Assembly (NCBI GenBank): GCA_036172245.1
Contig: JAYWIR010000091.1
Location: 62,001 to 126,000 of the forward strand
Length of the DNA stretch: 64,000 nt
Direction: 5' to 3'
Origin: Raillietiella orientalis
Lineage: Eukaryota
Both the position numbers and the translations under genes were made by a program. The stretch's first letter is position 1; every line of letters begins with the position of its first letter. Below are positions 1-34,165 of this stretch, one piece after another. The notes beneath the pieces were generated by a model that was not told where the DNA came from, ran no database searches, and saw only the letters and a list, made by a program, of their open reading frames with translations.

Positions 1-874
1 CGGACGCCAAGGTGGCAAGTCTCCTGCTGCATCGAGGGACGCGAAAAGTTGATCAGCGGCTGGACAACAATAGAACTGGCAGACGCCACGACCCCGAGCG
101 TCCAGCCGCGAGGACTAAGAAGATGGGGCGAGCTGCTGGCCATCCCTATGGATGTGCTGAAGTGGCCCCCGCTTCTTCAGGAATCCAGGATCCTGCCTCT
201 TAAGTGGAAAGAGTCGGCGTTGCTGTTGTTGCATTGGGGTTTACCCTGCAACGCACGCCGCTCTCACTGGACAAGAGGAGTTGTGGATCCTGCGTGTGTC
301 AGGTGCGGAGAGCGGGAATCGCTCTCCCACCTTATTATGGACTGTGCTGCCCTTCGTCCCCTTTGGAAACGGTTTGGGACGATCCTCGGTCTCCCAACGG
401 GCAGTTCCCCTAGAGACGTTCTTCGGCCCCTCTTCGTGAAAGACGCCCTGCAGCCAGCCGCAGCCCTTGCAGCCTTGTGCTGCGTCCGAGGCATCGTGGC
501 GGCATGGAGCGACACCAACAAGGAAGGAGTGGTTCAACACGCGAGGGATGTCATCCCATATTCCCAATGCTTCTTGCGAAGAGCTGCCGGATGGCCCCAA
601 CTGGGGAATATGAGGACTCACCTCGAGGGCTTCGTTCGACGGATGGGCCCTCTCCACAGCGAACAGTGATCCCTTCCCTGCCCTCCAACTTCTTTTTGTT
701 TGTTTCTTTTTATTTTACTTTTTGTCTTATCCCCATCCCCCTTCGCTGTCGGGGAGTGCCACGCCGGGCTGCGTCCCGGTGTCCCGACAGGTCCTGTGTT
801 TACGGCCGTGGTGGGGCCTAGTACCACGCATGTAAAGTTGATTAATAAACGCCCCGGGCGTACCCGGGTGATAA
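1..874 (+). mobile_element. 3' part of an L1/Tx1-like LINE (probably family D): ORF2 C-terminus, T-rich 3' UTR and hairpin terminus
   Basis: ORF 49..669 has the zinc-finger pattern CVRCGERESLSHLIMDC. It ends AATAAA(844-849)CGCCCCGGGCGTACCCGGGTGATAA, the same end as 33630-33660. Confidence 0.85.
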
Positions 875-1297
875 CGCCGAATTCAAGGGGCAGGCGATCC
901 AGGGGCAACTGCTCACAGAACTCGCGGACGGATTCCTTAAAAAGATCTCAGTCCTGGAGATTCCGGAGCGTGACGCCTTTCAGGTATTCGCGAAGGTGTT
1001 CCTTCGCACCTGAGAGTCGCGTCCAGTCCCCCGGCAGACGCCAATCCCTGGATGGCGGTAATTAGTCGCGAGGCCGCTTCTCGAAAATTAGCCGGGAATA
1101 GTCCAACAACGTCGACACAACCCTCCCCCGTTTGCCGACGCGTGAACACAGGTCAGCGTCCAGGAAGACGTGGTCGATGCTGCGGACCATTCCTCTCTCA
1201 CCCGCGAACAAGTTGCGCGCACGCATCGTGGCGCACAACCCGTTCATCGCGTTCACATGTGTTTCCGGCTCACCTGTTAGCAGGCGGACATTGAAAT
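875..1297 (-). pseudogene. Family D ORF2 endonuclease C-terminal half, continuing the host split at 7205
   Basis: Reads FNVRLLTGEPETHVNAMN...SIDHVFLD...LPLDRLPLEFG. Colinear with the uninterrupted paralog at 44950-45375. Confidence 0.85.
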
Positions 1298-1610
1298 TTA
1301 TCACCCGGTCACGCCGGGGCGTTTATGAATAATAATAAACTGGTCAGGGACAATGTCCTTAACCAACAGAACGACAGAGAACATAGAAAAATTACCGGCA
1401 CGCAGGCCTGGTAAACAAACCGCTCGCAGCGCGGGAGGAATGAGGGGAAACAAACAAAAATCAAAAACTGGAGGGAAGGGTAACGGGTTTTTGGTTAGGC
1501 TCCGTACTCACGGGGATTTATACGATGAGCACCTAACATGTTCCGGAGCCAATGGGGATGCGGGTGTAAAAAGAAAATACAAATTTAGTTTATGGAGGGT
1601 AGGGCAATGA

Positions 1611-4600
1611 TCACCGGGTTGTCCGCTGATGAGGGTGTGTCAACCGGTGGTGTATTGCGGCGAGATTCCTCTTTGTCTCCTCTGTCAAATGAGGCCATCT
1701 AGCGGATGCTCCCATGTAGAAGGATGCTTTGCTGATTACCTCTTGGTGCTGTCCGTTGATTACCAACGCCTGGCGGACGGAAACTATCGCGCGTATGCAA
1801 CCGATGGTTGCAATCCTTGCGCTTAGTGAAAGCCCGCTCGGCGTGAAGAATCGTCGCAGAAAGTCTCTTGCGGTGTCCACGGGATGCAATAGTGCTGTTG
1901 CCAGCCTACGCCACAGTCCTTGTAGGACACCGCAGTCCAGAAGTAGGTGCGGAATCGACTCCGTCGATCCGCACCGAACGCAGTTCTCAGACGCAAGTCC
2001 CCCGGAGTCACGATGCCAACGCTCGTTGCACTGAAAACCCCAGTGAACGAAAACCAGCACGGCTTGTTTCCAAGCAAGGGGGAGCAGCGAACTGTCCATA
2101 CACTGTGGAGGGACTACAAGTTCTTCGGGGGTGACAGCAAGTTCTTCTGTCCACCGGAGGAGTCCCTTTGCAGTAACACGAGGAGTGGCGGCGTCCGCCA
2201 ACTCACTCGTCTTCCAGGCGCCAAGGATTTTGGTTTTCCCGCTATCGTGCAGGAAACCTCCCACCTCGCCAGTTGGTAACTGTCGTTTTTTGCCCTGAGG
2301 GCAGACAGCGCTGCGGCAAGAGGCGTGGCAGCAAGGGTAGAAAACTTCACCTCGTCCTGCAGTACTTCTCCCAAGGATCGTGGAAAAAATTGGCGCAGGG
2401 GGCGAAGATCTTCAGGGCGTATTCCTTGGAACGCCGCCCAGGATTCAACAGACTCCTGCCGCCAAGCTTCAAAGTTCATTGGGCGGCAGGAGATCCAAGG
2501 GTGTGCTTCCAGAAGTGCGGTCAACTGCCGCAATGGAAACCCGAAACCCCGCTTCCTGTATTGAGTACCCGGCAAAAGCGAGAGAAATCCTCCGCTGCCG
2601 GCGCATCTCCGCAGGAGAATGCGAACTTGCACACACAGGGGGGATGTCCATTGCTGGGCACACAGTGCCAGCAGTCGGAACTGCACCTGCAGTCCGATTC
2701 GCTCCATTGTCAAGATACCCAAACCACCATCCAGACGCGGAGCTAAGAAATCTATAAGGCGGATCCTAGGTCTCGCCGGACCCCAGAGAGCGTTCCTGAG
2801 CAGGCGCTTAGCCCGCTGTTTTGCCGCATAGGGGGGGTCCAAAACAAAAAACAGGGGAGGGAGGAGGGAGGCCACAAAGGTGTTCCAAATAGTCGCCCGT
2901 TCCTGCAAGGTAAACTTGCCGTTAAAGAACGGGCTGATGGCCAACTCTGCTTTCTGAAGACAGTCCGCCCACGCTTCGGCTGCGCCGAAAGCGCCCAACG
3001 GAACGCCAAGGTACTTAAAGTACCCGCCCGTGGGGATATCCAGGCGGATCCAGTCGGACTGCCCCTCCCACGACGTACCCACAGGAACGACCACGCTCTT
3101 CTCTCTGTTCACGCTCACGCCCGCTCCCCGACGAATCAGGTCGAAGAAATCCTCGACACTGGACGCCGGGGTGGACATGGGGAGCAGAAGAAGCAGTTCA
3201 TCAGCGTAGGCGGCCACGGCAGGCGTTCCCGGGCAGGAGCTTGGCAAGTAAGACAGCGTCAGCCTGTATGCTCTTAGCACCAACTCAAAGAAGATGCTGA
3301 AGAGCAACGGGATTAAGCTGTCGCCCTGTCGGATGCCCCTACGAACGGGAATACCATACACGCGGCAGCCGCTAAAAGTGATGCAGGTTAGCGCGTGGCG
3401 CCAGCACGCGCGCAAATACAGCAGGAGTTGCGCCGGGAACCCAAGGCGTTCCATAAGCTCCAAAAGCAGCTTCTGGTTTACGCAGTCGAACGCCTTGCGG
3501 AGATCGACGGCGACCGCCAAAGCACCTATCGTTCCCTTCTTCCGTCGGCGCCTGTTTTTCTTGCCTGCGGCAGTGACTTTAGCGGCAGCCTGGCTTTGCT
3601 GCGCCACAACTTCCTGCAGCTGCATCCATGTACGCGCGAAAAGGATGTTCGCCTCCATGGACTGTCCCGGAACCGCGTAGGTTTGTTCCGGGCTCACCAC
3701 AGATTCCGCGATTCTTCCTAACCGCGCGACCCACAGCTTGGAAAACAACTTGACGTCCGAGTTCACCAAGGTGATTGGACGCCAGTTGTTAAGTTGGCGC
3801 AAGTCTCCGCCTTTCGGCAGGAGACGCACCTTCGCTGAGCGGAAGGAATCAGGGACATTCCCGGATTCACTCATCAGCGTCGCCAGTTTCAGCATCAAGG
3901 GAATCAGCTCCACTGCAAAGCACTGATAAAACTCTGCAGGGAGCCCATTCTCGCCTGGCGCCTTTCGTCTCTTCAACTTAGCGATGGCGGACGAAAATTC
4001 ATCCGCCGTGAAGGGCTCGTCGAGACGTTCGCGCTCCTCCTCGCCGACAACACGAGCATCCTGAGACAGGAATATCTCAGAAAGAATATCCTCCGTCGGG
4101 GATTCCGCGTAGAGCGAGGAGTAGTAGCGTGTCACAATGGGGCGTACTTCGGCTGGGGCCGAGCATTCCTGGCCCTTGTCGTCCAACAGGCATGCTGCTC
4201 CGGACTGCCAGACCTGGCGCTCGGCCGTCGCCTTGTACTCTGCAAGACGCCCGACATCCGCGCGTCTCGAAAACGTGCGGGCCTGCAGAAAGTCTTTACT
4301 GTTGGCCACGCCCTCTCCGAAACCGCGTGGAAGCCGGTGCAAGGAGAATTGGCAACAGTACTCGCGGACAGATCTTTTGAGATCGTCCCAGTCCGCAAGT
4401 TCTTGAATGGCAAAGCCCCGGAGGTATTCACGTAGATGCTTCGCAGCCTCCGGTTGGCTAAGCCAATCCGCCTGCATCCTCCAGCTTTGCAACGGAGGCC
4501 CCCTGCCTGGCGGAAGGATCTCAAACTCCAACCTGTGGTGGTCAGAAAGCCTAGTCAACAATCTTCCTCTCCTACCCACACGCGAATGCAGGTTTTCCTC

Positions 4601-5203
4601 GAGGAAAACGTGATCGAGCGATCTTTCCATTCCAGGTTCGCTGACCATCAAGTTGGCGGCGTGCACGGACGCGCACATCTCGTTGGGCAGCGCGCGCTTC
4701 CTCGCGCGGCTCCAATCGTCGGAGAGCAGGCGGACGTTGAAGTCCCCAGCGACGAGGTGCGCCACTTGGAAGCCGGAGTTGTTGAGCCACTGGCTCTGCA
4801 CCTCACCAAAGAAAGCTACTCTTTCTTCGAGGTAGCGAGAGCCACTCGGCGCGTAGACGTTCGTAACGACGAGATCGATGGACTCGGACCACTTGATGAC
4901 AAGCTGGCCTATCCGTCCGTTGTCATCGAAACGAACACTACGCACCGCTACCGCCATTTTTCCTCTTACGAGGAACGCGACGCCGCACGTGTGTGCGCCG
5001 CCGCACCGCCAATGTAGCGTTCCCCCTGCGCGCATCTCCATTTCGGCTGCCTGCTCGTCGGAGATTACGTGAATCTCCTGCAGCAGCGCGAGGTCGAAGG
5101 GGCGCAGGGCGTTGGCTACTAATCGCCTCTTCTCGTCGTTCTGCAGTCCGTTCACGTTCCAACACGTTACGGACAGACGACGAGAAGACGCGATTCCCCG
5201 CAT
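1611..5203 (-). pseudogene. ORF2p (APE endonuclease, RT, zinc finger), family A, disabled
   Basis: Motifs WNVNGL, LQEIH, NVYAP, GDFN, LDH, SDH, KAPGENG, NWRPITL, DLRKAFD, GIRQGD, KYLG. YADE replaces YADD, and a frameshift near 2220-2260 leads into ORF 1611..2264. Confidence 0.92.
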
Positions 5204-7125
5204 TACTGCTGGGAAGGTGGCAGCTTTTTGCTCGCTTTATCCGGCGAGCAGACGGCGAGCAGCACGATTGGCTGGAGGGGACGGTCGCCACCGTCCTCTG
5301 TCGTGCTGCATGCATGTAATGCCTCCACGCCAGGCTTAACCCCGTCGGGTTTCGTGGAGACTTCGCGTTGCTTCGCGGCGAGCGTTGCCTGGCTGCCTAC
5401 TTTTGATCGGCGCGCACACGCTTTCGAACGAGTTGTCCTCGTCTCGGTGATCGGAACGGCATCCATTTCGGAGTCCGACCGGCGCATGTTCGATCGGGTT
5501 TCGGCCTTCCGCGAAGCAGTGACAGGTTCTGCTGGATTGACAGCTGTTCTGTTTTCGTTTTCCGTCACCAGAGCATCGCTTTTGGTGACGGCTGCTTTCC
5601 CGGCGCGCGCGTTTTCAGCGTGCTCACGCGCAGTTGCACGAGGGACCTTTGCTGAAGTCTTCTTTACTTCATTACGGTTCCTCACTTCGCGTGGCGCCGT
5701 AAATGGAGATCGTGCTCCATGGCCATCTTTGAAGCCATCCGCGTCTTTGGACGGGAGCACTTTCGATGGCTCCGACACGCTCGTCATGGACGCTGCCTTC
5801 GGAAGGGCTTTTAATCCCTTCGTTGGCATGGCATCCGCGCCAGTCGAGAGCTTGCTCTCCGACTGCAACGGCGTGAGATTTTTCTCCGCTTTCGCGGTGT
5901 TGGATCGCGACGCGGATTTTTTTTTGCCGACTTTCGAAGTCGACACGGCACAACCCTTCTTACCCGATTTGGGCTTCTCAGCCACTGCAGGAGGTGAAGG
6001 AATGGATCTGACGGTACTGGAAGTGTTCTTACCGCCGTTGTCCATTGACGTCTTCGCCGGTTGTTCGAACTCCGAAAGAGCCGGGCGTGCTTGGGAAGGA
6101 CAGCTAATGCGCCTAGGGGGACTTACCATTGCCCCGGATTCCCCGCACCCTTTCTTTTGCGGCTTCCCTGCCGCGCGAGGGGGTGCGCAGGGCTTCGCTT
6201 GCGAGGTTTCCTGCTGCTTTGGGGCGACATTCCGCCTCGCGTTTTTACCGAATTTCTGCCGTGGGGTCACCAGGTTTTTCGCAGATGTTTTTTTTTTATC
6301 GGCGCTTTGTTTTCTAGGATGGAGCTTCGCGGCTGCCTTTTTTCGCAAAAGATCCGGGCAATTTTTCAATTGGTGCCCGGATAGTTTGCAATAACGGCAT
6401 TTTCCAGAGGGGCATTTATTTAAACAATGCCCTGCCTTCCCGCATTGCTCGCAGGTTTTTACTTTGCCCACGAACCACAGGTGAACGACCGTGTCTTTCA
6501 CCTGTAGTTTGGTGGGCAGCAGACGGCGGTCGGGCATTGTAAGCCGGACTCCAGCGACTCCGCTGTGTATGGACGGGAAGTCCTTGAGGTTGCTACGCAC
6601 CCTCCACAGCGCATGGACCTTGGCGAATTTCGCTAACGCGTTCCGAATATCAGTATCGGAGATTTCCGACTCGATGTCGAAAATCTCCACCACAAATGAG
6701 TCGTCCATGGCGGCCGGGAAGACCTTCTGGCCACGGATCGACAACGGGGTGCGCAGCAAGCGTTGCACAAGTGCAGCGTCTTTGCAACGCACCTTGAAAT
6801 AGCCCATGTCTTTTACGGGCATAATGGCGAGAAGGTCCTCCTCCCGCACGCCAACACGGGTCAGTTCATCGTTGAACTGATTCCCGTAGCGCGCAGAAAG
6901 AAAACCACTCACCTTATATCGGAGAGCAGGTCTATAGCCTTGGGCTACGTATGCCCGCAACTCCGACTCGTCGAGTGGTTTCCCTTCGACGGCTGCTGTG
7001 GCAGCAACGTCAGCAAAACTCCTCTCCATTGGCGAGAAAGACAAAGTGGAGGCGGCCGTAGGTTCCGCGATTGCAGATCCGGATGCTGTTCCTCCAACTT
7101 CAGTAGCTTCAAGTTGGGTCGACAT
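5203..7125 (-). CDS. ORF1p, gag-like nucleic-acid-binding protein with two CCHC knuckles (family A)
   Basis: Open frame with likely ATG at 7125 (MSTQLE). Motifs CEQCGKAGHCLNKC and CRYCKLSGHQLKNC, followed by a K/A/S-rich tail. Confidence 0.85.
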   Translation of the reverse strand: MSTQLEATEVGGTASGSAIAEPTAASTLSFSPMERSFADVAATAAVEGKPLDESELRAYVAQGYRPALRYKVSGFLSARYGNQFNDELTRVGVREEDLLAIMPVKDMGYFKVRCKDAALVQRLLRTPLSIRGQKVFPAAMDDSFVVEIFDIESEISDTDIRNALAKFAKVHALWRVRSNLKDFPSIHSGVAGVRLTMPDRRLLPTKLQVKDTVVHLWFVGKVKTCEQCGKAGHCLNKCPSGKCRYCKLSGHQLKNCPDLLRKKAAAKLHPRKQSADKKKTSAKNLVTPRQKFGKNARRNVAPKQQETSQAKPCAPPRAAGKPQKKGCGESGAMVSPPRRISCPSQARPALSEFEQPAKTSMDNGGKNTSSTVRSIPSPPAVAEKPKSGKKGCAVSTSKVGKKKSASRSNTAKAEKNLTPLQSESKLSTGADAMPTKGLKALPKAASMTSVSEPSKVLPSKDADGFKDGHGARSPFTAPREVRNRNEVKKTSAKVPRATAREHAENARAGKAAVTKSDALVTENENRTAVNPAEPVTASRKAETRSNMRRSDSEMDAVPITETRTTRSKACARRSKVGSQATLAAKQREVSTKPDGVKPGVEALHACSTTEDGGDRPLQPIVLLAVCSPDKASKKLPPSQQ

Positions 7126-7204
7126 CGTCGTCAAAATGTACGACGCCAAGATGAAGCGGATGAAAGCACGGAGACGAGAGCGAAGAAACACACGTCCGCA
7201 CTCG

Positions 7205-9638
7205 ATTGAAATCTCCCGGTATCAGGTGAGCCTTTCGCACATTGGTATCCGCCAGCCAGTCGCGCTTCAGGGTTTCCAACAGCCTGGTGCGGTCGCGGTA
7301 ACCCTGTTTGCGGCTGGGGCCATATACGTTTGTGACGATTAGGTCGATCGAGTCGCACCAGCTGAGAAACAGCTGACGGATCCGACTATCGTCATCAAAC
7401 CACACGCCTTTTACGGCAGCGTCGATGACCGGCTTCACGAAGAACGCGACCCCGGTGGTGTTGCGGATGCCGCATTGCCAGTACAGCGGACCCCCCGCTA
7501 TCGTCTCGATCTCCTGGACGTCTGCCGCGGTGATCACGTGCATCTCCTGCAACAGGGCCAGATCCAACTCCCGCAGGGTGTCTTCTGTATCTCGCCAGTT
7601 ACCGCCGTGGCGCAGCCCGTTGACGTTCCAACAGGCCGCGCGAATCCGAAGGCGACAGGCGAGTCCAGGTGTTAGTCCTGGGAAAACGGCGATGCGGCGT
7701 CTGCCACCTGCTGGGGCGGGACGATAGGTGGAGGGGGAGGGGGGACAGGTACTGAAGGCACCTGTTCCTCGTCCTCCATCGATGGCGGCGCGTCGGCCGG
7801 ATCACCCGCAGGTGGAGTCGCGCCTACCTGTTCGCCTTCCTCCATGGGTTCGAACTGCTCAGGTTTCGCGACGGCAGGGAGGACTTCACCCCCCTGCTCT
7901 CCCTCCTCCATGGGGGTGGGCGACTCGACGGCTTCCGGGCGTGGGTACTCCCCCTCCGGGATTCCCACGCTGCCGCTTCCTTCCGGTTTCTCCTCCCCGC
8001 TGGTGGAGGGGAGGCGCCTCCTGGGTTTCTGGGACTTGCGTCCCGACTTCCTGGGGAGGGCCTCCGAGGAGGAGGATCCGCTTGCGGCCCCCAGGTCGCA
8101 CTCACCTGCGGGGGCCTTGGTCGTCGGAGCCGACTTGCGTACGCCCTTGCGCGACGGGGTTTTGCGCTTGGCGAGCGTTGCTGCGAGCTCCTCCGCCGCT
8201 TTCTCGACGGCCGCGTCTTCGCCAGCGGCAACCGTTGCCGCGGGCTGCTCCGCGAGCTTATCGAGCGCGGAGTCATCGCTGACGGCGAACGTTGTCGCGG
8301 GCTCCTCCGCGACTTTATCGAGCGCGGCGTCCTGGCTGTCGGCGCGCGAGTCTCGCGTCTCACCCTCTAAACGTAGAATGGGCTCGTCCACCCGAGTACT
8401 TATCGCGTCCGGAGCAGCTGTTCCGCGAACATTGCCGAGGGCGGACTCGGCAGGAACGGCTAAGCGTTCCAGTGCCACCGAGCATTCGCGGAGTTTTTTT
8501 TTTGAAAGCGGCGCGGCTTTTTTCTTGTTGCCGGCAGTTTTCTTCTCCGAATTTTCTTCTATCATCACTTTCTTTTTTTTCTCTTTTCTGGCCTGAACCA
8601 GCTGCCAACCCTCCTCCATTCCCGCGTCCACGGGAGCTCTTTCCTCTGACGTCTGTACGGGAGGAAGGGAGGCTGGCAGTTGGGAACGGCCATTTTCGCT
8701 AGCTGGTCTTTCTACCAGCTTTCCACGTTTTCCCTGCGCCTTTTTGGCGGCAGTGGGCACCGGGGTGGGGCGCTTCAAGCTCACGCGCCGAACGTGACCC
8801 TTTTCGCCGCATTTGGCACACAATGTTCGGGCACCTTTCTCGTAGATGCCCTACTGCATTGCAGTAGCCACAAAATTGGCGTTTCCCCACGTACCAGAGG
8901 TCCACCGCTTCTTGGCAGACCTCCAGCTTGTGGGGAAGCGCACCACCCTCTTTTACTGTGATACGGGCCGCAGCTTGACCTCCGAAAAGGCTATTGTAGC
9001 CTTGGAAAATCGTGGACTTCGGCCACAACGCGTGCACTTCTCCGTGCTTTTGTAGCTGTTCTCGAACCGCTGACCTCGTCATGCGACTGGAGATCCCAGT
9101 GAGATGGACCACCACCGAGCGGTCCATCGTTATCGGCAAGATCTTCCGACCATCAACGATCAGCGGGTCGGTGATCAGGTGTCGGGCCAAGGTGATATCC
9201 TTGCATACCACGTCGACCCGCTGCCCGCCGCTGAGGACGCAGAGGCCGTCCAGATCTTTTTCGAAAATATTGGCGTTTTGCAGCGCCTTCGTAAAGGCGC
9301 GTGCAGTTCGTTCATCGAAAAGGTTGCCTACCTTGTAGACTAGCGAGGGTTTATACCCCGCTTTCTTGTAGGCTTCCATCTCGGCCATGGCTTCCACGCT
9401 AGGCGCGGCAACCATGGCTCTCCATGACCTCGGCGTCGCCGGGGACGATTCCGGGGCGGATGCCCTTAATCCAGTAGGCTGTGGGGACGAACAAGCCTCC
9501 ATCACGCCTACTTCCATCGCGGTGTCCTTTGGCAACGCTGCCATCGGACACCGACGATGTGCACGCACAAATCACTCAAGAAGAAAAAACGCTCGCTTTG
9601 TCACGCAGGCGGAGCGCAGGAAAAGCACGTCCGCTCTC
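7205..9638 (-). mobile_element. 5' part of a family D LINE: frameshifted ORF1 (about 9544-7672) and EN N-terminal half
   Basis: 5' motif GAGAGCGGACGTG at 9638-9626. Knuckles CGYCNAVGHLRERC and CAKCGEKGH. EN motifs CWNVNGL, LQEMH, NVYGP, GDFN. Confidence 0.87.
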
Positions 9639-10482
9639 CACAGCGGAGATTTGGCGAGGGAGTCAGGAACGAGCGGGCATATCTTTAGTCCCGCGGTCAT
9701 TCCAGGCGTCCCAAAGTCCGACGCCTGTCAGAATTTAAGGCTGTGGCGGAGAGGCAGGCCTGGCAGTCAGGCTCGGCTGGCTTGCTGGTCCATCAGGGCC
9801 AAGACCGCTCGATCCCAGGTCACGTAATCCGCATCGTGCGGGAGTTCTATTCCTCCTTTTACGCGCCACTAACACCGGAGCCTCATTTCGCGCAGCGCCT
9901 GCTGACGCATGGCCTCCCTGTTCTCAAGTAGGAGAATCGTTTCAGGTTGGCAGAACCGTTCACGATGCTAGTGGTCGTCTCTGTCATCAGCAGGCTGGAG
10001 AATAGGTAGGCACCAGGAGAGGACAGACTGCCCGAGGAGCTTTACAAACACTTCGCGCCAGAGCTGGCCTTCCTGGTGCTTACATTAAGTACGCTGATCC
10101 GCGAACACAAGGAAGTTCTCGCCTTGTTCCGGTCAGCAAAAGTACGTCTCCTGCCGAAGTCAGGACACTTACGCAACATTGGCAACTGACGTCCCATCAC
10201 GGTGATGAATGCGGACGCAAGGCTGCATGCCATGTTGTGGACTGAGCGTTTGGGGCGGGTGGTTGCTTCCGTGATCAGTCCGAAGCAGACCTACGCTGTT
10301 CCGCGACGAAGCATGGAGTCAAATCTGCTCCTCGCCAGCACATAGTAGCAGTTGCGACAAGGCAATGCCTAGGAAAGTTAAGGGAGTCTTGCGCTCCTCT
10401 CTGACCAGAAACATCGGATGGAGGGTAGAAGGGACCTTGCGGAAGCCCTTGCAGTCGCGGTCGACTCTCACAAAGCATTCGA
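9639..10482 (+). pseudogene. Decayed ORF2 fragment (linker to RT KAFD) of an E-like LINE
   Basis: Reads FGEGVRNERAYL, AERQAWQSG, FRSAKVRLLPK, VAVDSHKAFD, with many stops. Confidence 0.8.
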
Positions 10483-13400
10483 TTTTCACCCGGATTTCGC
10501 CGAGGCGTTTATTGTAAAATACACATTTACAAAGACATGCAGTGGCTTGACCATTCCTTCAGCCACGCACGAAGAAACACAGAGCGTGCTGGTTCACCGC
10601 TTTGCAGACCGGCACGCACCACTACGGCAGCAGTGGGAAGGGGGAAAAACAAAAAACAAAACAAAAAGAAAAGAATATACTGGGAGGGTACAGGAAGGTA
10701 TCACTGTAGCTGGTGGGGCCGTTGCATCCTTTGCAGGATGCCGGCAAGCTCTTGCTGCATGCTTAAATCCAGGTGGATCCATCGCGACGCTCTCCTCAGG
10801 AAATGGGAGGCTGGCTGGATGGAACCCTAGTCTCGTTGTCCTCCCGTAGCCTTGATCCAAGCGGTGACGATCCAGCGTAGACAGCATAAATCTGCTAACG
10901 AGGCCGCTACCCGAAGGTCGTCGGCAACGAAGAGGGCTTTCAGAGCGTCCCTGAGGTTGCTGCAGGGGATTCCGATGGCCGCGGCAAAGCGAAACCAAAG
11001 GTGCCTAAGGGCAACACAATCCACTAGCAGATGGGGGAGGGACTCCGTTTCCCACACCTGACGCAATTCGGGTCCACCGCTACCCAGGTCCAGTGGTGTC
11101 GGCGGGCGTTGCATGGGAGTCCCCAGTGATGCAACAGGAGAGGCGACTCTTGCCATTTTAAGAAGGGGGTGGAAGAGTTCATGAGAGCTGAGGGCCACAT
11201 CAGATGTTCAATGGGAACATCGAGAAGCGTGCTGCAGCGCAGAAGTCCATTGGAAGGCGTACTCGGGGACGCAGCGTCTGTTAACTGGCCCGTCTTACAC
11301 TCTCCTATCTTCTTCTTTTTCCCGGAGATTGTTACTGAAACCTCCCACTTCGCCGCAACATCGCTGTAGAGATCTTCCATCAGGGAGGGCAACGCAACAG
11401 CGAGGGGGTTCTTCCTGCCCACGCTCTCTTCTTTGGATCCTTCAGGATCTCGCGGAGCGTGCAACATCTGTAATCCCGAAACAGGAAGCTTCGTTCCTCT
11501 TGAGAGCGTTGCCTACCGAACAGTCCCCACGTTCGAACGGCTTCCTGCAACCAGGCACTACCGTTTGCGTGGAGACAGGTGATCCATCCTTGATTTTTGC
11601 TTGCCAGCGCAGCCACCCTCCGTAGCTCAAGCCCAATTCGGTTGATGCGGCTTCGATGGAGTGCCAGAAACAACGTAAGTCCCGTATTGCCGGTGGCTTG
11701 CTGAAGGTGGAGACGTGCAGGGACGCACCAACAGGTGCACCACAACTCCGGCACAAGTGTTAAAATCCGGAACTGGAGCTACAGCCTTAGCCGCTCCAAT
11801 GTCAGGAGGCCGAGACCACCGTTCCGACGCGGAGCGCACAAGTCCTTCAATCGGACTCGGGCCCTCCCGTTGCCCGAAGGCGCGATACGGAGAAGGTCCT
11901 TCGTCCGCTTTTTGTTCCTCTCTGTTGGGGGGCAAACAACAAGCAGGGAACGGAGGAGAGGAGCCGCGGACGTGTTCCAAACCGCGGTCCGTTCAGGCAA
12001 GACAAACCTGTCGCCTTGAAATGGGCCGATCGCCGTCTCTACTTTTGGAGGCAGCCGAACCACGCATCCGCAGGGGAGTAGTCCTCCAACGGCACACCAA
12101 GGTACTTGTAGTACCTCACCGTGGGGATCCCAATGCGGACTCAGTCCTGCTGCCCTACCCACGCCGCACCAACTGGCATCACGGACGACTTCTCACTGTT
12201 CAGCTGAAGACCGGTTCCCCGATTTAGCAGATCGAAGGACCCCTCCATCGCCAAAGACGGGGTGGACATACGGAGTAGCAGCAGAAGGTTGTCCGCGTAC
12301 GCTGAAACCGCCGGCGTACCGGCTCAGTCGTGCGGCAGGTGCGCCAGAGTTTCCCGGTAAGTTCTCAGTACCACCACGAAGTAGGTGCTGAAGAGCAAGG
12401 GACTCAGGCTGTCTCCCTGTCGAATCCCACGCCGCACCGCCACGCCGTGCACGGTCTGCCCGCTGAAAGAACCTTTGATGAGCGCGTCGCGTCAGCAGTA
12501 GCGCAGATAGGCCACTAATGAGGCCAAGAAGTTCAAGCGTTCCAGAAGCTCCAAAAGGAGATTCTTGTTGACGCAATCGAATGCTTTCCGGAAGTCCATT
12601 GCGATCGCAAGCGCTCCTGCCCCCGCCCGACGATCCCACCCCTTGCCGGTACACGCACCGGAATTCCGGCTGCGCACCAAGCTCCTTTCATGTTGCAGCT
12701 CTAGCCAGGTGCATGCGTGGAACAGTTTCGACTTTCCTCGCGACGCAGGTGGTCGACTGTTTCGCCTTCGACCACCAGTTTGTGGGGAAGAGGGCAGCCC
12801 TCCCGAACGGCCACGCGCGAAGCAGTGAAGCCGTGTTGCAGCCTTGTGTAGTCCTCGAAAGGACAAACTTTCGTCCACTGCGCGTGGACCGTTCCGTATT
12901 CCTCCAACGCGGCGCGAACCTGTTCCTTGCGACTCCGCGCGGTAACACCTAACAGGTGGACCACTATGCTGCGGTCCGCCGTAATAAAGAGGAGCCTGCT
13001 TGTCTTCATCACCATGGGGTTTTGAAGCAGTCGTTGTGCCAGCTCTGCTTGTTTGCAGATGACCTAAACGTACTGACACCCGCTGCGGATGGTCATAGCG
13101 CTGAGCTTCTCCTCTTTCACATCGAGAGCGCGCATGCCCTTCTAGAAGGCGCGCGCAATCTCTAAAGAATATAGATTGCCTACCTTGTAGAACAATGAGG
13201 GGATGTACCCCTCCTCTACATTGGCCGACAATCCCGCCGCGGCTGCAGGCGATGGCTCCGACACAACGGTGCTTTACGCCCGCGCTGCAGCGGGGACCGA
13301 TTCTGAGGGGGCGGATGCCCCCACCTCCATCTCCTATGGGGGCGAGGTTGCCGCCGCTCCTTGGCTCTCCATCGCCTCTGGGGGCGGCGTTGCCGCTGCA

Positions 13401-13526: not shown

Positions 13527-15258
13527 TTTTCACCCGGATTTCTCCGGGTCGTTTACTAAAAAATAAACTTTATAAAGAAATCATTTATGGCTGTGGCAAT
13601 GCTCCAGCCAGAAGCGAAGAACCAAGGAGCCTGCCAATTCACCTGTTTCTAGACCGGTACGGTCCATCATGGCAGCCAGGGAAAGGGGAAAAACAAAAAA
13701 CTGAACAAAAAGAAACAAAGGGTGGGAGGGAACGGAAAGGGATCACTGATGCTGCTGGGGCCGCATCATTTCTCTCAGGATGCTGGCAAGCTCTAGTTTG
13801 TTGTGAATATCCAGGTGTGGCCATCGCGACGCCCTTCTCAGGAATTGGGAGGCGCACTGGATAACATCCTGATCGCTAGGTCCTCTCGTCGCCGTGCTCC
13901 ATGCGACGATGATCCCACGAAGGCAGCACAAGGCTGCTTTCGAGGACGCTGGCCGCAGGGCGTCGGCAACAAAGAAGGCAAAAGCCTTCTTTGTTGTGCG
14001 TCCCTGGGGTTGCTGCAAGGGACACCGATGGCCGCGGCAAAGCGGAACCAAAGGGGCCGAAGGGCAACACAATCTACAAGGAGGTGGGGGAGGGACTCCC
14101 GTTCCCCGCACCTCACACAATTGGGATCCACCGCTCCCCGGTTCCAGTGGTGTCGACGGGCATTGCAGGAGAGTCCCCTGTGCTGCAACAGGAATGCCGA
14201 CTTTTGCCATTTTAGGGGGAGGATGGAAATGTTTATAAGAATCGGGGGCCACTTCAGATGTTCAATCGGAACATCCAGCAGCGCTCTTCAGCGCAGAAGT
14301 TTATTAGGAGGCGTATTCGAGGTCGCAGCATCAGTTAGCTGGCCCGGCTTCTACTCTCTTTGCTTCTTCTCCTTCCCGGAGATTTTTATTGTAACCTCCC
14401 ACTTCGCCGCAACATCGCTGTCCTGATGTTCTACTTGGGAGTCCAGCGCAGCAGCGAGGGTGGTTCTTCCTGACCAGGCTCTCTTCTTAGGATCCTCCAG
14501 GATCTCACGGAGCGTGCAACTTCTGTAACACCGAAACAGGAACCTTCATTCCTGTTGGGAGGGTTCCATGCCGAACTGTCCCCCCGTGCGAACGGTTTCC
14601 GGCAACCAGGCACTACCGTTCGCAGGGTGACAGTTGATCCATCCTTGATTTTTTCTTGCCAGCGCAGCCACCCTCCGTAGCTGAAGCCCACATCGATTGA
14701 TGCGGCCTCGATGGAGTGCAAGAAACAACGTAAGTCCCGTCATGCCGGTGGCTTGCTGAAGGATTAGACGTGCAGGGACGCACCAACAGTTGCACCACAA
14801 CACCGGCACAAGTGTCAAAATCCGGAACTGGAGCTTCACCCCAGCAGCACCAATGTCATGATGTCATGACCACAGTATTGACGCGGAGCGCACAAGTCCT
14901 TTAAGCAGACTCGGGACATTCCGTTGCCCCAAAGGGCGATACGGAGGATGTCCTTCATCCTCTTTTTGATCCTCTCTGTATGGGGGCAAACAAGAAGCAG
15001 GTAACAGAGAAGAGTATCCGCGAACATGTTGCAAACCGCTGCCCGTTCAGGCAGAAAAAACCTGCCGCCTCGGAACGGGATGATAGCCGTCTCTACTTTT
15101 TGAAAGCAGCCGGACCACGCTTCCGCAGAGGAGTAGTCCCCCAACGGCACACCAAGGTACTTGAAGAACCTCACCATAAGGATCCCCAAACAAATCCAGT
15201 TCTGCTGCCCAACCCACGCTGCACGTGCTGGCATCACGGACGACTTCGCCCTGTTCCA
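13527..15258 (-). mobile_element. 3' part of a second, tandem family E copy
   Basis: Hairpin terminus ACCCGGAGAAATCCGGGTGAAAA. Colinear with 10483-12200. Confidence 0.85.
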
Positions 15259-19766: not shown

Positions 19767-19780
19767 CGCTGTCTCGGCAG

Positions 19781-21649
19781 TTTTTCCCAAGTCCCACGAG
19801 GGATGATGTAAGTTTATTTTTCTAAAATTTTTCTATAAAAACATTCACACTACAATCTCATCCATACCATTAGCACTTTTTTTTACCACTATGAAGTCCT
19901 TGGGTTCTCACAAGTTCTGCACTCATGGTGAGTTTCCTGCTGTTTGGTCCCGGGCGTCGTCTTCTATCCTCTTCAGGATGAATCGGTACGTCCAGGCTTG
20001 GATTTTCCAACAGTTTCTAATGCCGATTTCCCTCTTCAGGAGCCCTTGTAGGATCTCCATCGGTGGTGCGGCTCTTCTGGCTTTCCTCATTTTCCACCAC
20101 CGCACAAGTATGGCGGTGATGAAGAGGGCGATGGTCGTCCTCACCATGGGATTGTAACAAGGAACATTACCATCCCCTTGAAACATCCCGGCGAGGATCT
20201 CCATTAAGGACCTGCTAGTGAGTCCGATGACCATTTTCAGGATCAGCCAGCCATGCAGCAATGTGGGACACGTCAAGACGTGAAGTCTCGTGTCGATGTC
20301 TCCACATGCTGTGCAGTCTCGATCTTCCCTTCTTCCGGTGTAGTGCTGCAATCGGGACCCACTCTGGATTCCTCCATGATAAAACATCAGGAGGTCATCC
20401 TGGGTGCCCGGCGGAAGGTCACTCCTCAATAGCGTCGTGCCAATCGCTAACAGGTTGATCCGGTCACTCCCGTAGCGATCGGCGGCTTCCTGGAGGGCAT
20501 TAATATCACTGTGTTCTTCTTGAATTAGTCATCGGAGGTTTGTTTTGGTTACCCTGGACCACGCAAAGTCCTTGTGATTGAACCACACTTCGCGAGTCAT
20601 GTGGGTAAACCTTCTTAACATCATCTCTATATACCTGAGTATACGAGTGTGATGTAGGTACCCTGTTCGTTTTCACTCCTGGATTCGTTGAAGGGTAACT
20701 CTGGACCGCTGGTGGATCCAGCTTCTCGTGTCCGGCTGGACAGGAAGCATCGAAGGGATCACCAGGATGAACTCGTCATGCCAGAGTTCAATACTTCTCG
20801 GCACGATCTTTATTTTGTGGTTTCGCACCAGCCGTTGGTTCCTCGTCCAGGTTGGGTCGATTTTTTCCTGTGTTTCAGGCAATCAGTTGACGACTCTTCG
20901 GATTGTTGTTGCCTTCAGAATAGTCTCCAGGACAGCCTGATGTCCGGGATGGGTTTCGCACCAGGCGTGCATGCTGATGAGCTCCGCCCTGGTGCCTTGC
21001 CTCTGCCAAGGATTCTCCGTTCTTAGGGAAAACCGCACCAGGGGTGATCGCACACCGTGGTCATAATGTTTTGAAAACGCTGGATGCGATTCCCAAGTTC
21101 GGTGCTGTGCAGGACGTGATCGATCGGCTTGTGACTTGCAGTTCTCCACACCATTCCGAATTCGTCGGATAACCGCCGATACGCCGTTCTTCCTCTGGCG
21201 TCTTCGGAGTGAGTGATCTCATCCAATGTGTTGAGATCGCCAGCAACAATCAGGACGTCCTTGGAAGCAACGTTTTCACGAAGTGCTGGATGCAGCCCCT
21301 CCGCACAACGATGTTTTAGCCTGTGCGGCCCGTACACGTTCACCAGGATGAGGTGAACAGTAGCGGACCAGGCCAGTGGCACGCCGATATTTCGTCCGGG
21401 TTGTGGACAGAACACTTCTAGAAGAGTGGAGGCGAAGTTGTTCTTTATTAGGACCGCCACTTCCTGCGTGTTCCGTTCTTCCTCGCTGACGAAAAACTGC
21501 CCGTTAAATCTCCGTTCCATTTGCTGACTAATCTCGAGACCCATGTTGTGGGTCTCCTGCAGGGACACTATTAACTGATTAAGTTATCGAGCGCACAATT
21601 AACTGATTAAGTTATCGAGCGCACAATACTTTGAGCCGCGAAGCAAGTT
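19781..21649 (-). mobile_element. Family F copy with both termini but two large internal deletions (ORF1 and RT lost)
   Basis: F 3' end at 19781 and 5' end at 21649. Deletion junctions near 20868 and 21570. Confidence 0.85.
21571..21626. repeat. 28-bp tandem duplication TTAACTGATTAAGTTATCGAGCGCACAA x2
   Basis: Read directly. Single copy in the other F 5' UTRs (about 19717 and 62151). Confidence 0.9.
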
Positions 21650-28213: not shown

Positions 28214-30333
28214 ACCGACGTAAAGCTTTCGACTGCGTCGTCCACGAACTGCTTTTGAAGCTTCTGGAACGCTTGGGATTGCCGGCCGTCTTCTTGTCCT
28301 ATATGCGCTCCTGCTGGCTCTTCGCATTTATAAATATCAATTTCAGCGGCAGCCACGTGTTTGGCGTTCCGATTCGTCGCTGCATCAGGCAGGTTGAAAG
28401 CCGCACCCCCTGCTCTTCAGCATCTATTTTGAGTTCTTGCTGATGGCATACAGGGAGTCTTTGGCAACCTCGCCGAGCTCGTGGCCCGGCACGCCTGCCG
28501 TGTCGGCTTATGCCGAGGACCTTCTGCTCCTGCTTCCCTGGTCCAGCCCGGCATCGGCGCTCGAGGATTTCTTCGAGTTGCTGCACCGCGGACAGGCCTC
28601 CAGGAAAACAGGACGAAGTCGTTGTTACTATTAACGGACTCGACGCGGGCTGGATGGTCGGACTGGATTCGCTTGGGGATCTCCACGGGCGGGTATATCA
28701 AGTACCTTGGCGTTCCGTTGGGGGACTTCTGCGCAGCAGAAACCTGGTCCGACCGTCTCCAAAAGGCAGCGTTGGCGATCGGTTCGTTCCAAGAATGCAG
28801 CTTCTACTTGCAGGAACGGGCCGGGATGTGGAACGCGTTTGCGTTTCTTCTCCTCCGCCTTCTACTTTTTGTTTGCTCCGCCCCTTGTTTCATTCGTAAA
28901 CGAGCAGCGGGCCTCCTGAGGACAGTCCTTTGTGCCAAAGGGAGGTCCCGTTAGGGGCTCAAAGACTTGTGCGCTCCACGTAAGGACGGTGGACTTGGCG
29001 TTCTTACGCTGGAGCGCATGGAAGTGCAACAACAGTTTAGGACTCTCGCCTTCGCGGAAGAAATGTGGGACACGCCCTGGTGCATCCCAGCACGCCTCCT
29101 GGCCCAACGAGCCTTTGGATCCGGCGGACTTTTGTCGTTTCTGTCTGCGCGCGTCTGCAGAAGAGCACACTGTGGCTCTATGCTGCAACGTATCTTCGTT
29201 GCGGTTCGGATGAACGCCTGGATTTCCTGTTTCCCAGGGAACTACTCTGCCTGGTTTCACGAGTCACTTTCCACCTGGGATAAGATCCACGTTCCGGCCG
29301 CACTACGAACACTTGTATGAATAGGCACGCTTGCTGGACGCTGCAGGAGATCGTGCAGTCCCACGACAAGCTTCTGTGGGCCTTGATTACCCCCCTCGCC
29401 CCAGTGCTGCCCTTCCTTGTGAATGCCAGGGACAGTAGCGAGCAGGCGAAATGGACCGTGTCCTGCACTATAGGCGGCAGGACACAATCGATAAAGGCGT
29501 GGACATCTCGGCAGCTAGCTGATGCTGCGACGCCAAGTGTCCCGCTTAACGGAATTCGACGCTGGGGCGAGCTACTCGGACTATCTCCGGAGGGGATGAA
29601 GTGGCCCATATCGTCCTGGAACAGTGCATCCCTCCCCCTGAAGTGGCAGGATGTGGCGTTGCTTGTGGTACTCTGGGAATAACCATTTAAAGCACGCCTG
29701 CACCACACCACCCGGGGGGCTGTGGATCCTAATTGTGACCGGTGTGGGAAGAAAGAAACATTCCCTTACTTTCTCCTTGAGTGCAGAGCCGTCCGCCCTT
29801 TGTGGGATCGTCTCGCGGCGATCCTGGACTTGCACGGATGCGGTCCAAAGGACGTTTTAAGGCGCCTCTTCTGGAGTGACGCCTTGTCCTCGCCCGCTAG
29901 TGTAGCAGTCCTCTGCTGCATCAGAGGAATAGTGGCGGCTTGGAACGCCACCAGAAGAAGGCGTCAGCCAACCGGCAACGCCTTACACTGGACTCGCCTT
30001 TTCGCGCGCAGTGTCTGCAAGTGGCGCCACTTGGGCGCTGAAATGACTCAGCTTGTGCGGATCCTGAATAGGATCTAGAGGACCTCTCCACGCGCACCGT
30101 GATACCTTCCTTGCCCTCCCACATCTAGAGCATTTGTTCCCCTCCACATATGAACTTTTTGTTTCTCTTTGGTTCTCTTTATTTCCCATCCCCGCGCATC
30201 GGAAGGACCTCTTCGGCATGGAGCCGTTAACCAGCAAGCTGTTTTAGAGTCTTGAACCTTCGGGTTCGCCACGCGACATTTCGATGTAATTTTATTTCAA
30301 TGAAATAAATGATCCGGCACACCCGGGTGTGAA
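28214..30333 (+). mobile_element. Family H LINE from RT KAFD to the 3' end, decayed
   Basis: Reads RKAFDCV, AYAEDLLL, KYLGVPLG, CDRCGKKE. Ends AATAAATGATCCGGCACACCCGGGTGTGAA. Confidence 0.82.
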
Positions 30334-32030
30334 TCGCCACGGCGCGCGTCACCTAGGACGACCGAAGGCTGCTGCCTTCGCAGATCGTCCTCGGTGACGA
30401 CGTCGTTTATATACGGTTTGCCGGACAATTTCCGGCTTGCGGCAACTGCATCAAGGAGGGCTACCGACCGCAGAAGTGCCCCACGCGCAGCTGCCGCTAC
30501 TGCAAACTGCTGGGCCACTCGATTAACGAGTGCCTCGAGTTGAAACGAAGGAAGCGGATAATAAACGTGTCCGCAACATCGCGTCCGATCCGTTTCCATC
30601 CTCACCGTCGTCGGGCACGAAATCCTGCGGGAACGAGGATCCTCGGCAGCGACTCAAGAAAACCGATAGCGCTGGCGTGCCTGAGAGCAATGCTCCACAA
30701 AAGTCCGCGCAAAAGGACAAAAAGCTTCAGCAAGCTGCTGCAAGCAAGCCCCGAGCAAACCAGCCTGCCGAAAACATCGGGCAGGCTGCAAAACCGCTTT
30801 TGTCCGCTCTTGCTTCGCAGCGAAAAAGTGGTGGCACGCTCAGAAAGTCCACCGATGCGCCCAAAAAGTGGTCGCGCGCCCCTTTACCCGCGCAAAGCAA
30901 GCCGGCCACGGCAAGCCCGTCTGTGGAAAAGGCTGCAAAGCCTTTCGCGACCACCAAGAACCCCGCCACTCTGGCAGCACCTTCCGGTAAGGAGGTGCAA
31001 AAGGCAGACGTGGCGAAGGATACACTGGCCACAATCGCCGCATAGAAGGCCTTGGAAAGGATGCGGAGGACCCTGGAAGACCTCGCGCCCAACCCAGGCA
31101 AACCGGAAGGCGGCGAGTATGGCTGGACCTGCGTTGGGGGAAGGAGGAAGGAGCGCAAACCGCGCGATTCTTCTCATTTTCCTATAAAAAGGGTAGGCGG
31201 AGCTAAGAAGCAGCTTCGCGCGCCTAGCAAGGCGCAAGAAAAAGCCTCCGCTGCCGCAGCGCCCGCCGTCGCAAACACCCGCTGCGACAGGATGGCTGCC
31301 GACGCCGTGACCCCGAAAGGGGGTTTGGCGCCAAAGGCACCCTCGAAGATTGCTGGCCCAGCTAAGAGCTTCCAGCAGAGAAATCGGCAGGCGAAACTCC
31401 TGCCGCGCGAGCGGAATTCGGACTGCGAGGAGGAGTCCGAGGGCAGCGCAAAGGCTCGCAAATCTCCGGCCAAGGTGAGGACTGCGCGTAAGCCGAAAGT
31501 TGCCAGGCAAGAGCGTTATGCCGGGAACGGTTTCCGATGCTCTTCGGAGGCCGAGGCAATGGTCCTCGACTCCAACCAGTCAGCCGCCAGCGCCGCGGCG
31601 GAGACTGGGAGCGCTTGCGCTCCCCCATCCGCCGTGCTCCCGGCTGATGCCTCGCCGGACGGGGCGAGGAACGCACCTCCATGTCCGTAGCAGCAATGCG
31701 CTGTCTCGCTTCTTCCCGTCGCGTGAGTAGCCTGTTGGAACGTCAACGGGCTGCAGGAAAACGAGAAGAGGCGATTGGTTGCTAACGTCTTGCGCGACAC
31801 CGATCTGGCCCTGCTGCATGAGATTCACGCACTCTCCGAAGAGCAAGCGGTCGTTCTGGCAGTTCGCGCAAGCATGACGCTCCATTGGAGGTCAGGCTCC
31901 CAGAATACATGCGGACTGGCATTCCTTGTCCGTAGCAGGGTGGCGGGGGCGGTTTGGAGCGTTTGTTTCGACCAGGAAGGTCGTGTGGGCCAGCTTGTTG
32001 TGAAGTGGTCCGAATCGATCGACCTGGATC
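30334..32030 (+). pseudogene. ORF1 C-terminal part and EN start of another A/C-like family (J)
   Basis: Reads ATARVT*DDRRLLPSQI..., CRYCKLLGHSINEC, then CWNVNGLQENEKRR...KWSESIDL. Confidence 0.75.
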
Positions 32031-33660
32031 CCCGCGGCCAGGTACCTGAAGTACCTGGGTGTCCCGTTGGGGCACTTCTGCCTCGCAGAAGCCTGGTCAG
32101 GTCGTCTCCAAAAGGTAGAGTTGGCAATCGGCCCGTTCCTGGAAGGCAAGTTGCTTCTGCCGGAACGGGCCGCGGTGTGGAACGCCTTCGCGGCTCCCAT
32201 CGTCCGCCCCCTGCTTTTTATTTTCCCCGTCCCCCGTCACATAAAAAAGAGAACCAAGGACCTACTCCGCATCGCCCTCTGGGGCAGCGGGAGGCCACGT
32301 GTGCCTCTAGAGGACTTATGCGCTCCGTGTCGGGACGGCGGTCTCGGCCTTCTGACGCTCGAGCGCCTGGACATACAGCTGCAATGGCGCACTCTCACCA
32401 TCCCAGCAAAGTCATGGAGCACCCCTTGGTGCGTTGCGCCCCGCAACCTCGCCACCCGTGTATCCAGGACGCAAGGACTCGCTTCATACCTTCTCTGCCC
32501 TCACAGAAAGGTCAGAAGATGCGGCCTTATCCTCAGCGCATGGAAGCCCTGGTGAGAGACAGCACTTGTACGGTATGCAGCTCCGCCAACTCCTTCGCTT
32601 GGTTGGTGGAATCCGTTGCCACGTGGGCCAAGCTGAACCTCCAGACTTCACTTGAATGGAACCGCCTGCGATTCGGACCAAAGGCCTGCTGCACACTGCG
32701 GACTACTCTGGAGTGTCCCACCAGGAGCACGTGGGTAGAGACTACCCCTTTAGCCTCGACCCTACCCTTCCTACGAAGGGCTTTAAACAGCGGCCGAACG
32801 CCAAAGTGGCAAGTCTCCTGCCGAATCGCAGGAAAGGAAAAGACCATGAGCGGTTACACCATGAGAGAACTGGCAGATGCCACGACCCCGAGTGCCCTCC
32901 CGCGTGGACTTCGTAGATGGGACGAGCTGCTCGGAATCCCGACGGATGACCTGAAGTGGCCCCCAGTATTAATTGGATCCAGGATTCTCTTACTGAAGTG
33001 GCAAAAGTCGGCGCTGCTGCTGTTGCACTGGGGTCTACCCTGCAACGCGCTGCTTCCACTAGACGCGAGGAAGTGTAAGGCCTGAGTGTGCCAGGTGTGG
33101 GGAGCGCGAATCGCTCCCCCAACTACTTGTTGACTGTGCTACCCTCCAATCCCTGTAGGAACGGTTCGGGACGACCCTCGGGCTCCCAATGGGCAGCGCG
33201 CCCAGAGACGTTCTTCGGCCCCTCTTCGTGGGAGACGCCCTGCAGCCCGCCGCAGTCCTCGCAGACCTGTGCTGCATCAGGGGCATCGTGGCGGTTTGGA
33301 GCGACATTCGCGACGAAGGAGTGGATGCCAACGCGAGGGATGTCATCCCGTATGCGGTCTACTTCATTCAAAGAGCTGCGAGATGGCCCCATCTGGGAAG
33401 CTAGAAGATGAACCTAGAGGGCATCCTGCGAAGGATGGGCCCTCCTCCCAGTGGATTATGATCTCTTCCCCTGCCTCCAAACTCTTTTTTTGTTTTCCTG
33501 ATCTTTATTTTTCTTTTTGTTTTGATCCCTATCCCCCTCCACTGCCGAGGAGCGTCCCGACGTCCCGGCAGGTCCGGTGATGTGTGGCCGTTAGTGAGGC
33601 CTCGTACCACGTTTATGTAGAGTTCTTTCAATAAACGCCCCGGGCGTACCCGGGTGACAA
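32031..33660 (+). mobile_element. 3' part of a LINE of the same family as 1-874 (probably D)
   Basis: Reads KYLGVPLG... 32790-33660 is colinear with 1-874 and has the same hairpin terminus. Confidence 0.85.
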
Positions 33661-34165
33661 CCCCAAATCCCGCAGGTAGGCGATGCAAAGGGAACCGGTC
33701 GCAAAACTCCTGGACCGACCGCTTTAAGCGGTCCCAGTCCTAAAGCGTCCGCATTCTGAAGTTCCGTATGAACGCGCGAAGATGTTCCGCCGCGTCCGGA
33801 AACTTCAGCCAGTCCCCTGGCAGACGCCACGCTGACGAGGGAGGGCCGTTGTCGCGCGGATGCACTTCGAACACGATTCAGCCATGGTCCGAGAGCTCGG
33901 ACGGTAACTTGCCACGCCTGCCCACGCGAGAGCATAGGTGCTGGTCAAGGTACACGTGATCGATGCTCCGTTATATGTCCGTATCTCCGGCCAGCAAGTT
34001 GCACGTGTGCATTTGTGCGCACAACTCGCTGACGCGGTCGTTCAGTGTATCCGGCGCACATGAAAGGAGGCGCAGGTTCAAATCAGCTACGATCAGGTGC
34101 GCTTTGCCAACACCTGCTTTGATCAGCCAATCACGTCCGAGGGCAAGGTAGAATTCTCTTCTTGC
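33661..34165 (-). pseudogene. EN/linker fragment of an E-like LINE
   Basis: Reads AHLIVADLNLRLL, SIDHVYLD, LSDHG, LHRLPAGFG. Confidence 0.78.

Follow-up and report, generated by a model that had tools for sequence, protein, structure and literature searches.

Accounts of target-specific long interspersed nuclear elements (LINEs) usually present a single element with a single safe target. In the Tx1 clade, according to the part of PMC4494074 available to us, Tx1L is inserted in Tx1D, the crocodilian Tx1-Mar in Mariner-N4_AMi, and both Tx1-8_Crp and Tx1-4_AMi in long terminal repeat (LTR) elements. Zepp, in the excerpts of PMC8226300 and PMC9940879, targets its own copies, leaves mostly 5'-truncated 3' ends and forms one cluster per chromosome. 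Here we analysed a stretch of 64,000 nucleotides from Raillietiella orientalis (the window; C91:62001-126000, C91 being contig JAYWIR010000091.1 of the 210-Mb assembly GCA_036172245.1), which contains nested pieces of L1/Tx1-like LINEs with an apurinic endonuclease-type domain (APE) and a reverse transcriptase (RT). The family labels D1, D2, D3, E, G, H, J, K, W, X, Y and Z were coined in this analysis, and D1 is the family D of the original prediction, in which D was thought to insert in antisense into the linker of the second open reading frame (ORF2) and, as Zepp does, into its own family. Our results suggest that D1, D2, E and their relatives probably form one APE-type LINE lineage that targets this linker in antisense across families and rarely hits itself.

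The window holds two copies of the same 3' terminus, AATAAACGCCCCGGGCGTACCCGGGTGA(T/C)AA, at 844-874 and 33630-33660 of the + strand. As predicted, both adjoin antisense linker codons at the same base, ...LDRLPLEFG at 875 and ...LHRLPAGFG at 33661. The D 5' end, on the - strand, adjoins FGEGVRNERAYL on the + strand, in agreement with the proposed contact with the linker antisense; its first base is 9649 and not 9638, and 9650-9656 is the duplicated heptamer. A 27-mer of the terminus has 50 exact matches in the genome and its reversed sequence none, so the recurrence is not due to chance. All the termini carry 1-4 A after the fixed sequence, about 30 nt past AATAAA, with no poly(A) or simple-repeat tail. 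A 3' hairpin is conserved in the eight termini of the window, with a compensatory change in none of five pairs, and an Rfam search with a full-length D1 copy gave four weak microRNA-type matches, all far under the gathering score, and no ribozyme.

Three uninterrupted copies (C114, C96 and C129; 5769-5780 bp, 95.5-96.5% identical to one another) link the D 5' end and ORF1 to the 3' untranslated region (UTR) found at 874, and one of them has an open ORF2 frame of 1134 aa. The element ending at 874 is thus D1, as had been supposed for both orphan ends. The end at 33660, however, belongs to the sister subfamily E: the two 3' ends are 74% identical, and full-length relatives of the 33660 end carry D2- or D5-type 5' ends. 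The host at 33661, taken to be E-like, is family Y (88%). Moreover, full-length elements with this terminus (D2 and E types) have ORF1s and 5' ends only 72-76% like D1; thus, several subfamilies share the linker site, and the expected linkage of the D ORF1 to this 3' UTR holds for the three D1 copies but not for these elements. In support of a common origin, D1, D2, D3, D5, D6 and E form one clade with 88% bootstrap in a tree of the APE region (16 sequences, midpoint root). The APE and RT of the W, V, YAP and Y' groups are interrupted by other inserts and were not recovered. At L116 (C5:2375500-2383500) a D1 5' end stands on an E-type body, which, together with the D2- and D5-type 5' ends on E bodies, indicates that 5' and 3' modules have been swapped between subfamilies. 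A D2 copy (C53:55034-60689) is 92% identical to D1 on the ORF2 side and just 76% in its 5' UTR and ORF1.

Insertion sites were read for 30 of the 50 exact matches to the D-type terminus, 20 of the 40 listed E-type 3' ends and 30 of the 40 listed D1 5' ends. Fourteen D-type 3' ends lay directly at the linker, all 14 at the same ORF2 nucleotide (aa ~312, antisense), confirming the predicted antisense targeting. Another seven were in tandem, at a duplicated site ahead of the 5' end of a sister element, and nine lay elsewhere. For the E-type ends the corresponding numbers were 15, 2 and 3. Of the D1 5' ends, 29/30 fit: 15 adjoined a host linker directly and 14 followed a sister 3' end in tandem, the remaining one being at a contig end. 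Counting direct and tandem ends together, 21/30 D-type and 17/20 E-type 3' ends are at the site, above the >20% of flanks that PMC4494074, in the part available, takes as sequence-specific insertion. At least six host families were struck at the same linker base. The 11-base motif occurs once in each of the seven LINE references (7/7), always at the linker, and the 7-bp core 6-10 times per LINE. D-lineage ends of a distinct subtype were also seen at L005 and L009, where K-like hosts are hit in sense at their APE 'YAPS/YGPS' codons; the target may have shifted here.

A duplication of 7 bp, or of up to 10-11 bp if microhomology is counted, surrounds L110, L111, L115 and C53a; the first three are full-length E copies whose Y-type hosts are contiguous and carry the duplication at either side. 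In family H the empty site reads CGCCGAA-ACC and the D1 5' junctions CGCCGAA-TCC. Therefore, the TCC is supplied by the element, and the firm duplication is 7 bp. The head-to-tail tandems arise because the first bases of the element imitate the continuation of the target.

Self-insertion is the exception; most of the sites that the lineage fills belong to other families (H, G, J, Y and K). Among the loci read, hosts at least 90% identical to D1 were found at 0/15 direct 5' ends and 0/14 direct 3' ends. Genome-wide, an insert occupied the linker site of 26 of 31 H copies, where four terminal types were represented (7, 5, 5 and 9 copies), and of 21 of 59 Y copies, while 6 filled D/E-type junctions stood against 96 empty D1-type sites. 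Since the H copies (94.5-97% identical) are no more diverged than the D1-type copies (88-98%), age does not explain this gap in occupancy. We also counted, by hand, the base at the wobble position +11, which was a pyrimidine in 33/36 used sites and in 9/38 empty ones (38 of 40 rows, two false matches having been dropped). D1, D2, E, X and Z have a purine at this base, and the used hosts a pyrimidine. We infer that at least part of the scarcity of self-insertions originates when the target is cut.

The junction at 874/875 had been read as D into D, and this reading was correct: a D1 element (95.5%) ends in a D1 host (94.3%), whose parts, 875-1297 and 7205-9649, are split by an X insert. The element ending at 874 runs on for 100 bp upstream of the window and then, with a 100-bp overlap, switches at -100 from D1 to D3 (80% to D1) in the same orientation. 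A plain 5' truncation of D1 at -100 was rejected, since the upstream DNA is this D3 and not the remainder of the host. The D3 5' end lies at window -16586 and is flanked by a different family, 73% identical to D1, in which the heptamer is not the same. Thus, the matching duplication expected at the 5' end of the 874 copy was not found in the 38 kb read upstream, where the element proved to be a D3/D1 recombinant; nor did these 38 kb contain a D1 continuation with the RT half of the host. Most likely, 874/875 is a genuine-looking insertion end whose other side was lost by recombination between nests. It is one of the rare self-insertions, and the break would be the later event. An assembly error may also lie behind the junction. 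Of three public contig sets just one, X1, matched, with many differences; none bridged 874/875, which is evidence neither way, and one X1 contig diverges from the stretch exactly at 875, continuing as an unfilled D site. Note that the X copy inside D3 (C91 about 57,500-57,750, window -4470 to -4246) has a short inverted segment beside K at X's KAFD, and that most of the 5' half of its ORF2 is absent, which suggests a rearrangement in the nest.

Several observations weigh against cross-family targeting with rare self-hits. The specificity of the W subfamily is loose, with 4/19 ends at the linker and most others sharing just CGCC or CTCC, and among the 9/30 D-type ends that lie elsewhere two recur in sense at an APE site. 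Self-lineage hits do exist: 874/875, the D2-type junctions, and hosts 77-90% like D or E. Two of the six filled D/E-type junctions are D2-type in D2-type with identical flanks, perhaps one event. The +11 pattern fits self-avoidance at the level of cutting but is confounded with family, and in X and Z also with base +2. The contrast in occupancy is large, but Fisher p-values overstate it, as the search patterns are asymmetric and the copies non-independent. Most entries in the host lists for X and Y derive from DNA retrieved around D. Finally, antisense self-insertions make long inverted repeats and may be purged afterwards.

This last point leads to the main rival, the purging of inverted self-insertions. 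Targeting would here be family-blind, with D-in-D as frequent as any other insertion and then removed, or misassembled, as multi-kb inverted repeats of 90-97% identity. Close inverted repeats are unstable, the sole D1-in-D1 case of the window is rearranged with its 5' side gone, and the many full-length copies with mismatched left and right hosts (C114, L112) indicate that ectopic recombination is common. X and Z, however, are ~66% identical to D and should not recombine with it, yet in the fetched DNA one of their sites was filled and 13 were empty. They share the +11 purine, though they also differ at +2, and both off-linker insertions into a perfect motif (L089 and L227) have a pyrimidine at +11. 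We regard purging as an unlikely explanation of the gap, although the most serious of those considered. Much less probable is an ordinary short cut preference of 4-7 bp in each family, acting in LINE islands that merely tolerate insertions, with no evolved homing. Dispersed ends with a short core would fit it (15/19 of W-type ends, and 9/30 of K ends in non-LINE DNA), but nearly all LINE-hosted D/E hits use a single one of the 6-10 cores per LINE, and 18/21 LINE-hosted K ends are at the KAFD antisense although K's TCGAA occurs 8-16 times per LINE.

The original prediction, a Zepp-like D that chiefly inserts into itself, could draw on 874/875, on the two D2-type self junctions and on the tandems at 14/30 D1 5' ends. 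Nevertheless, the tandems stand at a duplicated host target and not inside D, often joining different subfamilies, and the 96 empty D1-type sites against 6 filled junctions essentially refute self-insertion as a habit unless purging is right; the likeness to Zepp fits the tandems only, and we consider this reading very improbable. Least probable of all is that segmental duplication multiplied composites of host and insert from a few ancient insertions, or that the pattern is an assembly artefact. Duplicate loci do occur (L003/L004, L102/L103, L178/L179 and C119/C129), and the public contigs did not bridge the junction, but near-identical H hosts hold the four terminal types, including W ends with 3' UTRs ~74-79% like the nearest D/E reference, and the striking of at least six host families at one base is likewise at odds with composite amplification.

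We favour, then, antisense linker targeting across families, and propose the following route. The endonuclease would read a site of ~11-12 bp, T^C[G/C]CC[G/A]AA[T/A/G]CC[C/T] on the element's strand, which is the antisense of Gly-Phe-Gly-Glu codons and would be kept by protein constraint in the ORF2 linker of every related LINE. A family-specific APE nick would be followed by target-primed reverse transcription from the fixed, tail-less 3' end, giving the 7-bp duplication. Joining of the 5' end would be aided by 3-4 bases of homology, the first bases, TCCC or ACCT, copying the continuation of the target, so that each insertion would rebuild a good site just upstream and allow head-to-tail tandems. 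Other families would act at motifs of their own (for X, GDFN in D; for Y, TLRN in D/E; for Z, EI in K/Y; and for K, KAFD in several families), and cross-family hits with later recombination among nests would yield nested LINE islands. More tentatively, these LINEs might form a network of mutual parasitism, in which endonucleases read codons that rivals cannot easily change, families escape their own enzyme by synonymous or linker changes at its site, so that wobble bases would act as a self/non-self code, 5' ends rebuild the target and nesting drives module swaps; this broader picture is possible, but we hold it with some doubt.

The other families were seen at recurrent positions as well. X lay in sense at the GDFN codons of D-lineage hosts at 10/13 3' ends and 9/10 5' ends, in a sample weighted towards D. 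The GDFN codons of X itself show synonymous differences from the site hit in D. The duplication flanking the X insert of the window is 8-9 bp (1290-1297 / 7205-7212). Because the hosts (77-80% alike) are more diverged than the X copies (93-95% alike), these insertions are independent. D1 copies with X at GDFN are very common (eight composites compared, in the C53a, C53b, C137, C29, C26, C167 and C91 regions). Co-transposition of D1 and X as one unit was unsupported (identity correlation 0.35, p 0.07), the identities suggesting repeated independent hits.

Y was found in antisense at the TLRN codons of D/E at 5/5 5' ends and 2/2 3' ends, with a duplication of 16-17 bp; the Y 3' pattern caught 14 ends, of which two were Y and the other 12 were set aside. 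Since Y inserts in the TLRN codons of D/E while E fills the Y linker, D/E and Y hit each other. For K, 30 of 156 ends were read: 18 at the KAFD antisense, one of these in a K-like host, three elsewhere in LINEs and nine in non-LINE DNA. Two K ends (L157 and L168) are in sense at VDLHKAFD codons, some 20 bases away from where K usually lies in antisense, and both use a TCGA core. Of eight Z-like ends, five were at the EI codons in the APE of K or Y hosts. Further families with recurrent sites were noted at L182, L185, L191 and L196-198 and at L130, L134 and L140, one in antisense at APE 'GGRL' codons and one in antisense near ORF2 aa 1087.

Features of the window discussed in the text, with positions counted from its first base
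Feature	Position	Strand	Identity or remark
D1 LINE, 3' end (zf-RVT region, 3' UTR and terminus)	1..874	+	95.5% to full-length D1 over -100..873
D-lineage 3' terminus with AATAAA and short GC hairpin, without poly(A) tail	844..874	+	hairpin predicted
Target heptamer CGCCGAA, antisense of GFG/E codons; 3' copy only	875..881	+	
Host D1, C-terminal APE and linker up to the FG site	875..1297	-	94.3% to D1 2861-2439
Family X LINE, full-length, 5.9 kb, in sense in the GDFN codons of host D1	1298..7204	-	
Host D1, 5' part (5' UTR, ORF1 and N-terminal APE); 5' end at 9649	7205..9649	-	94.3% to D1 2-2447
Target heptamer CGCCAAA, 5' copy, of the D1 element with 5' end at 9649	9650..9656	-	
Host family G, from GEGVRNERAYL to the KAFD motif	9650..10482	+	82% to G reference
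Family K LINE, 3' part, antisense at the KAFD codons of host G	10483..12734	-	
Sister subfamily E, 3' part	32026..33660	+	74% to D1, about 90% to full-length E copies
Target heptamer CCCCAAA	33661..33667	+	
Host family Y, APE end and linker up to the FG site	33661..34168	-	88.4% to Y reference, 79% to K
Family Z LINE, full-length, antisense at the APE 'AQEI' codons of a K-type host, then a tandem Z 5' end	49228..55179	+	

A further 3' terminus of the type seen at 844-874 and 33630-33660 lies at 30304-30334 (+). The window also contains a distant, AT-richer APE LINE family, P (15254-19780, 19773-21649, 37270-42695 and 56553-62205), which appears at one motif near the end of a Z or X-like ORF1 in three places (21649, 37270 and 56553/62205), has an apparent 10-bp duplication at 56553/62205 and a tandem at 19780, and is probably another site-specific family. 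A short tandem duplication of ~26 bp lies at the 5' end of a P copy (21570-21630). In addition, a conserved G[A/T]G[C/T]G[G/A]ACGTG-T-rich motif stands at most about 12 bases from the 5' end in all families (window 9627-9640, 7190-7203 and 49235-49250, and also in the K, Y and E references), and is possibly an internal promoter element.

The elements show the features of an L1/Tx1-type APE LINE: APE, RVT_1, zf-RVT (sub-cutoff), an ORF2 of 1134 aa and Cys/His knuckles in the ORF1 translations. The APE (Exo_endo_phos) and RVT_1 matches are above the Pfam cutoff in the X ORF2, within 2117-5236, and the zf-RVT match in the D1 3' part (1..874; E 4e-4) is below it. The best solved relative is human L1 ORF2p (PDB 8uw3; E 2e-49), whose APE and RT are arranged in matching order. 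The FG site falls between the end of the endonuclease (aa ~256) and the match on the RT side (from aa 353). Human L1 has a short T-rich site and a poly(A) tail, whereas the D lineage is tail-less and uses the linker site. Homologue searches returned no named close relative and no named Tx1 or Zepp reference, the best database relatives being 21-29% identical.

The occupancy counts and the rarity of self-insertion are what this analysis adds, and the Zepp reading is to be replaced by cross-family targeting with rare self-hits. Related APE endonucleases, from ORF2s about 55-90% identical, appear to have diverged to at least five different targets of 7-17 bp in LINE coding sequence, a natural panel for how APE specificity is encoded, which bears on tools for site-directed retrotransposon insertion. 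Competition between transposons also becomes testable here, both in who disables whom and in whether self-avoidance resides in synonymous sites. Moreover, cross-family targeting offers a route to LINE-only islands that needs neither self-targeting nor centromeric chromatin. In the literature, with thin coverage of subscription journals and Repbase Reports and with supplements outside the search, we found no account of LINE families targeting each other's ORF2 motifs.

Compared with the systems described so far, the closest likeness to Zepp and ZeppL lies in being L1-type LINEs with nested insertion into LINEs, dense clusters and tandem arrays, as set out in the excerpts of PMC8226300 and PMC9940879. 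Unlike the Zepp of those excerpts, self-insertion is rare here, many copies are full-length, many families take part and copies appear to be dispersed as well. Matches in the genome are concentrated on small contigs and towards some contig ends, with others spread along large ones. Zepp ends in poly(A), as stated in the available part of PMC3747384, whereas the D lineage has no such tail. A centromere atlas preprint reports, in the portion at hand, nested LTR clusters with shared duplications from host recombination (10.64898/2026.09.17.752431); duplication by host recombination is unlikely here, since the inserters are more diverged than the hosts. The group II twintrons of Methanosarcina acetivorans, in the sections of PMC4424553 available, offer an analogy to these nests in the repeated site-specific homing into related retroelements and in the thinning of nests by recombination. 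Group II introns use RNA base-pairing and can splice out, whereas the LINEs described here presumably rely on a protein endonuclease and destroy the ORF of their host. The D lineage works like the transposon-targeting Tx1 elements, to judge from the parts of PMC4494074 and PMC4640811 at hand: both are two-ORF LINEs with APE, RT and zinc finger that take another transposon as a safe target, with the specificity ascribed to the endonuclease (PMC4494074). The Tx1 targets named in the available part of that paper are DNA and LTR transposons, RNA genes and microsatellites, whereas those found here are conserved ORF2 codons of sister LINEs. Unlike the Tx1 elements described there, each family here has its own motif and some pairs hit each other, the likeness being one of targeting mode and not of compared Tx1 sequences.

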